A stretch of DNA of 64,000 nucleotides from an uncultured Actinomycetes bacterium (GTDB taxonomy: Bacteria > Actinomycetota > Acidimicrobiia > IMCC26256 > JANYLB01): assembly GCA_963829475.1 (NCBI GenBank), contig CAWHIU010000001.1, forward strand, positions 11,790 through 75,789, written 5' to 3'. The notes below the pieces were generated by a model that was not told the DNA's origin, did not search any database, and saw only the letters and a program-made list of their open reading frames with translations. Shown here one piece after another: positions 60,742 to 64,000 of the stretch. How positions within the stretch are numbered: position 1 is the first letter of the stretch; each line of letters opens with the position of its first letter. The position numbers and the translations under genes are program-made.

Positions 60742-61530
60742 GTGATCGAGGTGCGGAGCGCACGGACGCGCCTGCGATGGTCCGGTTGGACGGATCTGCG
60801 ATGTCACCCGATCGCCGTGCTTCTCGCGGCCGCGGTGGTCGGTACCACCGCGCTCGCAGTCTGGGCCGGTCTCGTCTGGCGCCCCCTCGGCGGCCCCGGA
60901 TTCACCCTTGTACTCCCCGCGTCGGTCGCTCCTCGCGACCCTTGTCGGTTGGAACCAGCTCGGCTGGTCGACCACCGACCTCCGGATCTGGCGGGAGACC
61001 CTCCTGGTCATCGGTGGCCTGCTCGTGCTCGCCGGAGTGCTGTTCCTCACCGGACCCGGCTCACCGCGCGAGCTGCCTCGCGTTCGGCGTCGGTTCCCTC
61101 GAGGAGGAGCTGGTGTTCCGCTTCGCTGCGCCCCTCGCTCTCGGTGGACTCACCGCGTGGGTGCTCGGCCGGCCCGCGGGTGACGTGCGCGCGTGGGGCA
61201 ACGGGCCGTGCGCGGTGGCCGTCGTCGGAAGCGCCGTCGCGTTCACGTGCATGCCGGGGCACCTCGCCCAGGTGCACGGTCCGCTGCAGCTCGTCCCGTT
61301 CCTCGCGATCGCGATGCTGCTTCACCTACACCGTGCTCCGCACCGGCGCGCTGGTGCCCGGCATCGCGGTGCACACGCTGCTCAACATCGCGACGGTGGC
61401 ATACCTCGCCGGAGCGATGACGAACCCGGTCTGGGCCGGCTTCGTCATCGTCGGCCTCGGTGCCTACGCATGGGGCGCCGAACGCGCCGGCCGCCGCCTC
61501 GGCCGCATGACCCCCGCCACCACCGCCTGA
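60742..61530 (+). CDS. CPBP (CAAX/Abi) intramembrane glutamic protease, several frameshifts
   Basis: EEELVFR and HTLLN motifs, multiple TM segments across frames. Confidence 0.7.
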   Translation: MIEVRSARTRLRWSGWTDLRCHPIAVLLAAAVVGTTALAVWAGLVWRPLGGPGFTLVLPASVAPRDPCRLEPARLVDHRPPDLAGDPPGHRWPARARRSAVPHRTRLTARAASRSASVPSRRSWCSASLRPSLSVDSPRGCSAGPRVTCARGATGRARWPSSEAPSRSRACRGTSPRCTVRCSSSRSSRSRCCFTYTVLRTGALVPGIAVHTLLNIATVAYLAGAMTNPVWAGFVIVGLGAYAWGAERAGRRLGRMTPATTA

Positions 61531-61576
61531 CCGCACTCCCGCCCACCGACCTCACCCGCCGCCGCCGACCTCACCG

Positions 61577-61629
61577 CCGACGTTTGTCGATTTCGTCGCG
61601 CCGAGCGCGACGGGAGCTACAAACCTCGG
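61577..61629. repeat. 53-bp imperfect palindrome A, containing the DUF559 gene stop codon
   Basis: ccgacgtttgt-cgattt-cgtcgcgc-cga-gcgcgacg-ggagct-acaaacctcgg. Confidence 0.9.
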
Positions 61630-62539
61630 GCGTGGAGAGTCTGGATGACGTTCTCCACGACCGAGCTCGGTCGCTCGACGAGATCGCGCCACGAGAAGTG
61701 GAGGACCAGCCAGCCCGCGGCCGCGAGCTTCGTGCGTCGGGCGAGATCGCGCTCCCACATCGAGCGGCCACCGTGCCACCGGTAGCTGTCGGCCTCGATC
61801 GCGATCTTGAGGTCCGGGTACGCGAGGTCGGGGCGGGCGATCGACTCGTCGGCGTTCACGCACCTCGAACTGGGCAACCGGCTCCACCAGCCCGGCGCGT
61901 ACCAGCATCCGTGAGAGCCGTCGTTCGAAACGGTTCGCGTGCGGACGCACACCGCCGAGCCTTGCTTCGAGCACCGCGGCCAACTCACCGGCGTTCCGAC
62001 GACCGCGACGGCCGAGCTGGAGGAGCTTCGCGAGGACGCGGTCCGCCCGGGTGAGACCTTGGACCAAGGCGCTGTCGACCACGTCGGGGATCACCTGCGC
62101 GGGCAGCACCGAGACGACGGCGATGATGGTCGCCTCGATGCGGGTGACCGGTATCGCGTCGATCTCGGTGCGGTCCGCGGGATCGACCGAGACCGACCGA
62201 TGCACGATGACGCCTCGGCGCTTCGGTGGGAAGCCGAGTGGGACCGTCAGCTCGATCACGTCGTGGCCGAACCCATCGAGCTGCCAGAGCGCCGACGGCC
62301 GACCGATGCGAGGCAACGGCATCGTCCCCGGCAGACAAGACCGCGGCGAGCAGGTCGCCGCGCCACGTGACCGGCGCGCCCGCCGCTCGCAGGACGCCGG
62401 GGTGGCACGGGACGAGCAGGCCGACCGTGGTGCGCCGGTGAAGATCAGAACGGGTGAGCCCGGCCGCGAGCACCTGGTCACGGCGCACGATCCCGTGTTG
62501 TCCTGCCGCCTGCCGCGCGACATCCGTGTCCTTGCGCAT
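61617..62539 (-). CDS. AbiEi-like N-terminal HTH + DUF559 (Vsr-like) endonuclease, frameshifts ~62300 and ~61860
   Basis: QHGIVRRDQVLAAGL...ASHRSA; VIVHRS; IPVT; FERRL...ARPDLAYPDLKIAIEADSYRWH...DLARRTKLAAAGWLVLHF. Confidence 0.85.
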
Positions 62540-62594
62540 GCCGACGAGTCAATCAACCGGGTGTGACACTCTCCGCTCGCCGCCCGATCCACCA

Positions 62595-62647
62595 CCGACG
62601 TTTGTAGCTCCCGTCGCGCTCGACGCGACAAGACCTACAAACCTCGA
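62595..62647. repeat. 53-bp imperfect palindrome B, inverted copy of A
   Basis: ccgacgtttgt-agctcc-cgtcgcgc-tcg-acgcgaca-agacct-acaaacctcga; 45/53 identical to the reverse complement of A by manual alignment. Confidence 0.9.
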
Positions 62648-62703: not shown

Positions 62704-63813
62704 CTAGGACGCCAGGGGCTGTTGGCGTTGGAGCCAGGCGGCGTGGTCGGCGGGCTGGCGGATCTCCTTGGGGAAGACCGAGTGCGCGACGGCCTCGTCG
62801 TAGGAGATGACGCCGGCGGCGACGAGCTCGGAGAGCGAGCTCTCGAGCGTCTTCATGCCGTCCTTCATCCCGGTGGCGACGACGTTGCGGATCTGGTGGG
62901 TCTTGCCCTCCCGGATCAGGTTCCGCATCGCGTTGTTCGCCATGAGCACCTCGAACGCGGCGACCATGCCCACGTCGGTCTTCGGGATGAGGCGCTGCGA
63001 CACGACGCCGGCGAGACACGCGGCGAGCTGCACCCGGATCTGCTCCTGACGGTCGGCGGGGAACACGTCGGAGATGCGATCGATGGCCTGCGCCGCGTCG
63101 TTCGTGTGCAACGTCGCGAACACGAGGTGACCGGTCTCGGCGATGGTCAGCGCGAACTGGATGGTCTCGAGGTCGCGCATCTCACCGACGAGGATGACGT
63201 CGGGGTCTTCCCGGAGCGCGGCCCGCAGCGCGTGCTGGAACGAATCGGTGTCGGTGCCGACCTCGCGCTGGTCGACGGCCGACTTCTTGTGGCTGTGCAC
63301 GTATTCGATCGGGTCCTCGATGGTGAGGATGTGACACGCGCGGTTCTCGTTGATGTGGTCGATGATCGACGCGAGCGTCGTCGACTTCCCGGAACCGGTC
63401 GGACCGGTCACGAGCACGAGCCCCTGCGGCAGCCCCGCGAACTGGGTGATGCCCGACGGGAGTCGGAGCTCGTCGAAGGTCGGGATGTGGTACGGGATGA
63501 CCCGGAGGCTCATCGCGAGCTCGCCCCGGCGGTGGTACACGTTGCCGCGGAAGCGACCGTTGTCGCGCCATGGGAACGAGAAGTCGACCTCCTTCTTGTC
63601 GCGCACCTCGTCGGCGAGGTCGGTCCCGATGGTCGAGAGGATCAGCTCCGTCGCGTCGGTGTCGGTGTAGTGCGGCGTGTTGTCGATCTCGACGAGGTGG
63701 CCGTCGACGCGCACGCGTGCGCGGCTCCCGCCGGTGATCAGCAGGTCGGTCGCGCCGTGATCCCACAGCACGTCGAGGTACTCGTCGATCAGGCTGATGT
63801 CGATGGCGTTCAT
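62704..63813 (-). CDS. pilT: Type IV pilus retraction ATPase
   Basis: GPTGSGKSTT; TIEDPIE; LREDPDVILVGEMRD; AETGHLVFATLHT; AMRNLIRE. Confidence 0.93.
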   Translation of the reverse strand: MNAIDISLIDEYLDVLWDHGATDLLITGGSRARVRVDGHLVEIDNTPHYTDTDATELILSTIGTDLADEVRDKKEVDFSFPWRDNGRFRGNVYHRRGELAMSLRVIPYHIPTFDELRLPSGITQFAGLPQGLVLVTGPTGSGKSTTLASIIDHINENRACHILTIEDPIEYVHSHKKSAVDQREVGTDTDSFQHALRAALREDPDVILVGEMRDLETIQFALTIAETGHLVFATLHTNDAAQAIDRISDVFPADRQEQIRVQLAACLAGVVSQRLIPKTDVGMVAAFEVLMANNAMRNLIREGKTHQIRNVVATGMKDGMKTLESSLSELVAAGVISYDEAVAHSVFPKEIRQPADHAAWLQRQQPLAS

Positions 63814-63839
63814 GTCATGCTCCGTTTGGTCGAGACGAA

Positions 63840-64000
63840 CTAGTCGACGGTCCATTTGGTGACCGTTGCCGGGAACAGGTTCGTGGACGGATCCACGGAG
63901 GCCGCGAACGTGACCCACGCGGTGACACGGGTCGTCCAGCCACCGGTCGAACAGCTCACCGGCACCGCGCCGGTGCCGACGCACGCCTCGAGTCGCACGT
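63840..64000 (-). CDS. 3' end of an upstream gene (partial), possibly pilus-associated
   Basis: Open frame VRLEACVGTG...VTFAASVD...TVTKWTVD* ends just before pilT. Confidence 0.45.
   Translation of the reverse strand, partial: VRLEACVGTGAVPVSCSTGGWTTRVTAWVTFAASVDPSTNLFPATVTKWTVD

Follow-up and report, generated by a model that had tools for sequence, protein, structure and literature searches.

A nuclease gene flanked by copies of its own dispersed palindrome in an Actinomycetes genome: a probable REPtron-like partnership without a RAYT

The DNA analysed here is a stretch of 64,000 nucleotides (the window) from an uncultured Actinomycetes bacterium, whose 2.88-Mb genome assembly is called G000 below. 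Between positions 61577 and 62647 of the window, a gene for a protein with an AbiEi-like DNA-binding module and a Vsr-like (DUF559) nuclease domain is bracketed by two 53-nt hairpin-forming elements. An earlier note, made from the letters of the window alone, had compared this cassette to a REPtron, in which repetitive extragenic palindromes (REPs) flank the gene of their cognate enzyme, and had pointed out that a REP-associated tyrosine transposase (RAYT) is missing. The observation is real, and the earlier reading holds at the level of architecture and generalises well beyond the window. We consider it probable that gene and hairpins form a REPtron-like partnership, in which a family of repeats is paired with a nuclease of non-HUH type, and which is widespread in Actinomycetota and is a functional analogue of REPIN-RAYT systems. 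The features of the cassette are listed by their positions in the window.

61551..61576, no strand: C-rich 26-nt stretch to the left of hairpin A, part of a 78-nt direct repeat
61577..61629, no strand: hairpin A, family H1, 3′ of the gene; its right arm carries the last codons and the stop codon
61617..61619, minus strand: stop codon TAG (CTA on the plus strand), inside the right arm of hairpin A
61620..61844, minus strand: C-terminal piece of the gene, residues ~233-307 of the G004 ortholog; Vsr-like/DUF559/MTES_1575 nuclease domain
61864..62289, minus strand: middle piece of the gene in a second frame, residues ~85-226; C-terminal half of the AbiEi-like module
62297..62539, minus strand: N-terminal piece of the gene in a third frame; AbiEi_4 winged helix-turn-helix
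62537-62539, minus strand: start codon ATG of the nuclease gene
62562..62568, minus strand: leader motif TGTCACA (coding strand), ~25-30 nt upstream of the ATG, read by eye
62595..62647, no strand: hairpin B, family H1, 5′ of the gene, 55 nt from the ATG

Both 53-nt elements are imperfect palindromes and lie exactly where the earlier note had placed them. As single-stranded DNA, hairpin A folds with −17.6 kcal/mol (z −3.7) and hairpin B with −14.7 kcal/mol (z −4.7), and for each of them 1 of 200 shuffled sequences folded equally well. The gene-facing arms form a perfect 23-nt inverted repeat (61602-61624 on the minus strand, 62600-62622 on the plus strand, 0 mismatches), also as claimed before, and this 23-mer occurs exactly twice in the window, while 100 shuffles gave none. 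In the repeat search of the window, the two hairpins were recovered both as an inverted repeat of 59 nt (85%) and as a direct repeat of 78 nt (73% identity), the latter pairing the stretch from 61551 through hairpin A with 62569-62646 and extending 26 nt leftward of each hairpin. The perfect match of the inner arms is a local feature of the window cassette and no general trend: inner arms matched better than outer arms in 12 of 25 loci and outer arms better in 13, arm splitting being noisy. A gene looped out by a long-range stem of the inner arms was rejected as a general feature, since the perfect repeat is missing in the G004 ortholog.

The two hairpins of the ~1.05-kb cassette enclose a single open reading frame (ORF), and the one-gene layout is also found in other cassettes. 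Its identity as an AbiEi/DUF559 gene stood up in Pfam searches, which gave AbiEi_4 for the N-terminal piece (E 1.4e-6) and MTES_1575 (E 4.8e-9) and DUF559 (E 1e-4) for the C-terminal piece; the DUF559 cut-off of 20.6 was reached by the window piece (22.6) and missed by its G004 ortholog (19.4). The gene is not one continuous frame in the window, a correction to the earlier note. Using the intact 309-aa ortholog from the related genome G004 as a tblastn query, we found it split over three frames, and the alignment to G004 shows two 1-nt insertions in G000, near 61841 and 62291. G000 is a four-contig assembly, scored 73% complete, in which several genes are frame-broken. The conserved paralog of family X2 (see below) is broken only in the two four-contig assemblies, G000 and G002, and is intact in G001, G003 and G005. 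For this reason, we regard the breaks in the window gene as probable assembly indels, not as signs of a pseudogene.

In the whole of G000, BLAST and exact pattern searches gave five verified H1 copies. Two of these bracket the window gene, and the other three are solo copies located directly after the stop codons of other genes. By our own arithmetic, five copies would yield ~0.007 pairs within 1.1 kb by chance. As there are only five copies in 2.88 Mb, the double flanking is not a chance event, which answers the question of copy number that the earlier note had raised.

Furthermore, tblastn detected five paralogs in G000, including the window gene, and all five are bracketed, each by its own hairpin family:

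window gene: family H1
C2:504562-505503: family H3, a 49-nt element with 12-bp arms and an asymmetric core of 25 nt
C2:1005180-1006055: family X1
C2:1333559-1334348: family X2
C2:413280-414146: family H5, a pair of related ~73-nt repeats

A de novo hairpin scan of G000, which collected 10-mers with their own reverse complement nearby and kept families with at least four loci, returned the four families X1, H3, X2 and X3, and the first three of these each flank one paralog. Loci with both arms numbered 6 for H1 (5 verified, one not inspected), 16 for H3, 20 for X1 (1 false), 11 for X2 and 7 for X3, and exact half-sites of H3 were found 28 times compared to once for a reversed control. The copies are mostly extragenic, with 13 of 60 hairpin loci lying within a coding-like ORF compared to 382 of 600 random windows. 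Among the solo hairpins, 17 could be assigned to a type of spacer (8 convergent, 7 tandem and 2 divergent, where the control gaps numbered 131, 451 and 97, respectively), and 33 more were unclassifiable. Copies of one family have the same outer 10-14 bp in both arms and differ in the inner part, and asymmetric cores are found in both orientations. The arms start with CGACGTTTGT, GAACTTGTCGCG, TTCCGGCGTCG or CGTTGGTGCGAT and are paired to the very end, without a GTAG or CGTC tag. The unit is a single-copy gene with two cognate palindromic elements of 37-55 nt and further solo copies, which are mostly extragenic.

The association of one gene with one hairpin family was also observed across genomes. 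In G002, G003 and G004, the hairpins beside paralogs that share 57-63% identity with the H1-type protein belong to a different family, H2. Half-sites of H2 were counted 51 times in G002 and 22 times in G003, both of which carry an H2-type gene, and 7 times in G000, which has no such gene and where a reversed control gave 5, so that this number is background. Conversely, of the genus genomes only G000 and G004, which alone carry an H1-type gene, have H1 at 0-1 mismatch. For the solo hairpins that we met in spacers of other genomes, the gene of the family was present in the same genome. In four genomes of cultured Microbacterium, the arm word beside one homolog occurred 56, 59, 12 and 26 times, compared to 0, 0, 1 and 1 for the control, many of the words being in pairs 50 nt apart and some in arrays. 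In Microbacterium testaceum, cognate hairpins form short tandem arrays with a period of ~100 nt (G042:C1:138892-139153, G041:C19:62113-62475 and G042:C6:97266-97724). Comparison of a 14-kb Microbacterium query to eight relatives gave 65-84% identity with rearrangements, too diverged to score the presence or absence of solo copies.

To survey the family more broadly, one genome per species was taken, which resulted in 80 homologous loci, 58 of them near full length and with enough flanking sequence to be used. For each locus, the upstream window (−220 to +10 of the start) was compared to the downstream window (−70 to +130 of the stop), and a mutual best match within the locus was scored as a flank pair. 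Such a pair was present in 28 of the 58 loci, whereas none of ~40-120 control windows gave a match as good. By record titles, the positive loci comprise 24 of 38 from Actinomycetota, 3 of 18 from Myxococcota and 1 of 2 labelled Acidobacteria. What matches in these pairs are hairpins of 45-55 nt with a lineage-specific sequence, the upstream one ending 30-90 nt before the start codon and the downstream one overlapping or closely following the stop codon; exceptions among the positives are L039, a direct repeat without a hairpin, and L060, a match of 12 nt only. Of 13 further paralogs from G001-G005, one of which is the same locus as L022, 11 were positive. On the protein tree, the label 'pair' requires 11 changes compared to 18.9 in shuffles, none of 500 being as low. 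Stem words are shared within clades: four proteins, for instance, have CGAGTG-type stems, and the Acidimicrobiia clade is positive in 6 of 6 cases. These label counts are descriptive, as relatedness inflates them. Thus, the proposals of the earlier note that paralogs should have flanking pairs of their own, and that these should co-vary with the protein phylogeny, were both borne out.

The earlier note had further suggested to look for empty sites in relatives, for which the two neighbours of the cassette served as conserved flanks:

60908..61530, plus strand: left neighbour, membrane-protein gene in two frames
62704..63984, minus strand: right neighbour, PilT-type (T2SSE) ATPase gene, outside the cassette

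The pilT assignment of the right neighbour was correct. The CPBP label given to the left one is unconfirmed, as each of its two frame pieces matched 0 Pfam families; this gene switches frame near 61320, which also suggests assembly indel errors. Between the same two neighbours, the H1 cassette is missing in G002, G003 and G026, where the spacer measures 75-81 bp, and it is present in G004 at ~79% identity, with the intact 309-aa ORF and diverged hairpins. The spacer of G002 carries a solo H2 hairpin; those of G003 and G026 have none. Likewise, the H3 cassette of G000, located between L27-like and obg-like genes, is missing at this site in G001, G002, G003 and G005, and G005 has a solo hairpin of its own family there. 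At the H3 site of G001 (L110, G001:C26:62770-63190), a stretch similar to the start codon and 5′ leader of the cassettes is kept, apparently left behind when a cassette was deleted. At its site, the X1 cassette is missing in all of G001-G005, where the spacers measure 17-89 bp; those of G001, G003 and G004 (17-29 bp) are too short for a hairpin. In the trpB-side spacer, a solo hairpin in G005 stands where G000 has a cassette. Since the empty sites in the nearest genomes are mostly without a hairpin, hairpins and gene seem to arrive or leave together there.

X1-type genes are found elsewhere in G001-G005, with 70-73% nucleotide identity and a co-diverged arm (CTTTGGCGTC compared to TTCCGGCGTCG in G000). 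The X2 cassette, on the other hand, is collinear over 3.6 kb in G001, G002, G003 and G005 (78-84% identity). The arms do not differ among G000-G003, and in G005 they form perfect stems of 21-22 bp in which changes are compensated on both arms. G003 and G004 share the H5-type gene at its site. Whole cassettes are gained or lost, and some are long persistent.

We also analysed the protein. It is ~310 aa long and consists of a full AbiEi-like module (winged helix-turn-helix and second domain) followed by a Vsr-like PD-(D/E)xK nuclease domain. As a profile search of the PDB by sequence only gave 3hrl at E 0.47, a fold search was needed. An AlphaFold2 model built with 56 homologs reached a mean pLDDT of 93.6. 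With Foldseek, the first ~200 residues matched AbiEi (6y8q) and Rv2827c (1zel), and the last ~100 residues were closest to the catalytic domain of I-Bth0305I (3r3p; TM score 0.78 by target length, rmsd 2.9), followed by Vsr (1cw0, 1vsr) and the DUF559 structure 3hrl. The two-domain fold of AbiEi was found in the model, the AbiEi_4 match being at E 2.9e-9, and PADLOC AbiEi models covered residues 8-185 (E 1e-28). T138, D238, E249 and H256 are invariant in 56 sequences and D251, D265 and R268 are conserved in at least 90%; by analogy with related nucleases, the conserved acidic and histidine residues may be catalytic. Pfam detected no transposase domain in the protein, and tblastn against plasmids and phages gave no copy of the gene. 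The family is large, with 16,800 of 1.84 billion cluster representatives matching at E <= 1e-30 and 48,870 at E <= 1e-10. The absence of a RAYT was confirmed: none of the 5 genus genomes (completeness 59-89%) gave a hit to Y1_Tnp (PF01797), and the same search was positive in 6 of 14 control genomes.

Several side observations were made. ORFs of 1365 and 1410 aa (G001:C7:38556-39023 and G002:C1:52355-52825) end in a domain that matches profile positions ~158-305, the nuclease part only, and probably encode large multidomain proteins with a C-terminal DUF559-like domain. A TGTCACA-type leader (TGTCCCA in H3), followed by GCC or CCC, was read by eye ~25-30 nt before the ATG of the H1, H2 and H3 genes, between upstream hairpin and start codon, and may be a promoter or operator element. 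The H5-flanked paralog directly adjoins a tRNA gene, with a second tRNA gene 1.1 kb further on (L101 2364-2437 and 3469-3542). In an Rfam scan of five loci, two tRNAs were the only hits, and the hairpins gave no match. The X3 hairpins are 37 nt long, with arms GGTGCACTTCGCGG and a 9-nt asymmetric loop in both orientations, and lie in G000 at C1:196117, C2:720242, C2:755874, C2:765093, C2:992694, C3:55787 and C3:70175. Two X2 hairpins with a common private inner sequence surround a luciferase-like (LLM-type) oxidoreductase gene of ~1 kb (G000:C2:793901-794975; L102 1302-2376). As this gene is resident in relatives, the hairpins came to both of its sides. Two H3 elements surround putative extracytoplasmic function (ECF) sigma and anti-sigma genes (G000:C2:527779-529372; L097 780-2373), which lie between lepA-like and hemW-like genes, labels that were assigned by reading translations. 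Hairpin pairs as carriers of passenger genes were considered and rejected: the flanked genes are resident, and the oxidoreductase is found in relatives without that arrangement.

How might such a partnership work? AbiEi and Rv2827c autoregulate by binding to inverted repeats within their promoters (PMC7319586), and I-Bth0305I is a homodimer with a ~60-bp footprint and a pseudopalindromic core (PMC3239194). Because of these two precedents, the AbiEi-like module, probably as a dimer, would recognise the two invariant arms of its own palindrome, and the upstream copy would probably provide autoregulation. The nuclease domain would probably nick or cut at or near the element. More speculatively, repair of the break templated by other copies could maintain, homogenise and sometimes multiply the hairpins, and move the cassette. 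In its strongest form, this would define a new class of intragenomic replicators, in which Actinomycetota palindromes are recognised, cut and propagated by dedicated AbiEi-winged-helix/Vsr-like nucleases via break- or nick-induced copying, a proposal that we make tentatively and that may well turn out to be wrong.

A number of observations weigh against a REPtron-like partnership, or against its mobile form. We know of no strand-transfer chemistry in PD-(D/E)xK nucleases, and for this reason the copying step would need host repair and is undocumented. Between occupied and empty sites, no target-site duplication or base-exact boundary was readable, the whole spacer being different. Across two genera, the X2 cassette has kept its place and is intact, which means that not all cassettes are currently mobile, and the term 'selfish element' used in the earlier note is too narrow: this cassette is more like a long-term resident, as reported for RAYTs. 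In the survey, 30 of the 58 loci, including 15 of 18 from Myxococcota, had no flank pair by our test, which means that the link between hairpin and gene is not universal or that the windows miss some pairs; among the further paralogs, L121 and L128 were negative. The orientation of the flanking copies is not fixed either: the direct alignment was the closer one at 23 of 29 loci, and at 5 of 11 among the further paralogs. The outer arms never vary within a family, and as they are invariant, there is no within-family covariation that would support a folded hairpin over a duplex palindrome bound by a dimer. For the X3 family with its seven loci, no cognate nuclease gene was detected in the 73%-complete G000. 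Hairpin pairs also bracket ordinary resident genes, namely the LLM-type oxidoreductase and the sigma/anti-sigma-like pair, and with 5-20 members the families are far below classical REP numbers.

Could the cassettes be nothing more than regulatory loci? The gene would then encode an autoregulated DNA-binding protein of the AbiEi type, perhaps a toxin-antitoxin or defence gene fused into a single chain, with the nuclease in the place of AbiEii, and nothing would be mobile. The upstream palindrome would be its operator, the downstream one a terminator or a second operator (looping), the solo copies a regulon or decoys, and cassettes would come and go by ordinary insertion and deletion. The N-terminal 180-200 aa, a full AbiEi homolog, fit this explanation, as do the promoter inverted repeats through which AbiEi and Rv2827c autoregulate (PMC7319586), the position of the upstream copy 30-90 nt before the start, the vertical stability of the X2 cassette and the outer arms, whose invariance resembles that of protein-binding half-sites. 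However, solo copies that could be classified tend to lie at convergent gene ends (8 of 17) and seldom in the divergent spacers that bear promoters (2 of 17), and whole cassettes with their hairpins are present or absent at three orthologous sites. The coexistence of five specificities, each with a dispersed family of its own, in a single small genome, the invariant nuclease residues and a cassette of ~1.05 kb without an AbiEii partner also speak against it, and the origin of 5-20 near-identical elements of 37-53 nt at unrelated sites is left unexplained. Taken together, we find a purely regulatory role unlikely.

Alternatively, the hairpins might spread by other means, and the gene, as a free-standing gene of the homing endonuclease type that targets a given hairpin family, would copy itself into or beside a hairpin and thereby duplicate it. 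This would agree with the closest structure of the nuclease domain, the catalytic domain of a homing endonuclease, and with the constant presence of a target-like element on either side of the gene; the trpB-side spacer, with a solo hairpin in G005 and a cassette in G000, and the orphan family X3 without a gene also fit. Yet the empty sites in the nearest genomes are mostly without a hairpin (X1 in G001, G003 and G004; H1 in G003 and G026), each family has one gene copy despite 5-20 potential targets, and no other candidate enzyme for moving the hairpins was found, a RAYT included. This makes parasitism of pre-existing hairpins quite improbable. An artefact, in the form of unrelated terminator-like hairpins that happen to lie beside a gene or of an assembly error, could be imagined for a genome in four contigs, 73% complete and with frame breaks in several genes. 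It is hardly credible given that only five copies of the family exist in 2.88 Mb, that the independently assembled G004 ortholog shows the same architecture, and that this architecture recurs in dozens of other assemblies, including the cultured Microbacterium genomes. We favour the REPtron-like partnership.

To our knowledge, the HUH tyrosine transposase RAYT is the only type of enzyme with which REP-type repeats are known to be associated. Entire super-families of repeats have been described as being without a dedicated enzyme (PMC3733652). A full-text search of the literature, with subscription journals and supplements outside its scope, gave no paper that links DUF559, AbiEi-nuclease or Vsr-like genes to flanking or dispersed palindromes, and members of the family have so far been annotated only as AbiEi-like or DUF559. 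At the window locus and in its relatives, the logic of one gene with its own repeats is found on an unrelated DNA-binding nuclease, in a phylum that goes unmentioned in the available text of PMC3733652. If the tentative proposal of a new class of replicators is true, this class would be a non-HUH counterpart of REPIN-RAYT, mechanistically new, and would provide a function for a very large uncharacterised family; the enzymes missing from RAYT-less REP families may also be sought in this direction. The function can be tested directly because the presumed DNA ligand stands on both sides of each gene. Material is at hand in the five specificities of a single genome and in cultured Microbacterium with ~12-59 half-sites of the arm beside one such gene, and natural orthogonal nucleases, each specific for a ~50-bp palindrome, would be of practical interest.

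The cassettes were also compared to known mobile and defence systems. The hairpin at the end of the ORF resembles an integron attC site in position only (no integrase search was made), and the flanking hairpins are cognate copies, unlike neighbouring attC sites of integrons. IS200/IS605 insertion sequences and miniature inverted-repeat transposable elements are likewise short elements with terminal or subterminal palindromes, and their non-autonomous copies depend on one coding copy. In the cassettes, however, there is no Y1, DDE or serine transposase, and the coding copy is bounded by two complete elements instead of halves. With AbiE type IV antitoxins (6y8q; Rv2827c, 1zel), the N-terminal ~200 aa share both the AbiEi fold and the sequence family. 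The cassette has no AbiEii (DUF1814), although a genome-wide DUF1814 scan was not made, and contains only the fused nuclease domain; for this reason it is not an AbiE toxin-antitoxin pair. It also differs from AbiE by its inverted repeats on both sides of the gene and by the dispersed solo copies.

The best structural match of the nuclease domain is to I-Bth0305I and other 'EDxHD' Vsr-like homing endonucleases, which likewise combine a DNA-binding part with a C-terminal Vsr-like nuclease, and the ~60-bp footprint of I-Bth0305I is similar in size to the hairpin elements (PMC3239194). As in homing endonuclease genes, presence and absence is seen at otherwise conserved sites (H1, H3 and X1). I-Bth0305I, however, is carried by a group I intron within phage recA, from which it homes to the intron-less allele (PMC3239194), whereas the gene described here is free-standing and chromosomal and is flanked by repeats that also occur solo. 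It is not a classical intron- or intein-borne homing endonuclease.

CGTC-tagged REPs also form palindromic extragenic families and also lack a flanking RAYT gene. They 'lack a dedicated transposase', are located mostly downstream of genes and mostly in Alphaproteobacteria, and have stems of 8-9 bp with loops of 4-5 nt; Actinobacteria are mentioned 0 times in the available text (PMC3733652). REPtrons and REPIN-RAYT systems, in which REP palindromes are associated with a single-copy Y1 HUH transposase (PMC3333891, PMC8266576, bioRxiv 10.1101/2022.05.22.493013), share several traits with the cassettes: a single-copy enzyme gene flanked by cognate palindromes, repeats that are dispersed and mostly extragenic, several enzyme-repeat families per genome, co-divergence of enzyme and repeat, and at least one lineage with long vertical inheritance. 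In contrast to REPs, the elements have no unpaired GTAG tag (as defined in PMC3733652), are longer (37-55 nt, with invariant outer arms of 10-14 bp) and form small families of 5-20 copies. Moreover, the hosts belong to Actinomycetota, congeners differ in the presence of whole cassettes, and the enzyme is an AbiEi-winged-helix protein with a Vsr-like PD-(D/E)xK nuclease instead of an HUH tyrosine transposase. Because of this different class of enzyme, the cassettes do not belong to the REPtron family, although their genome architecture is similar.

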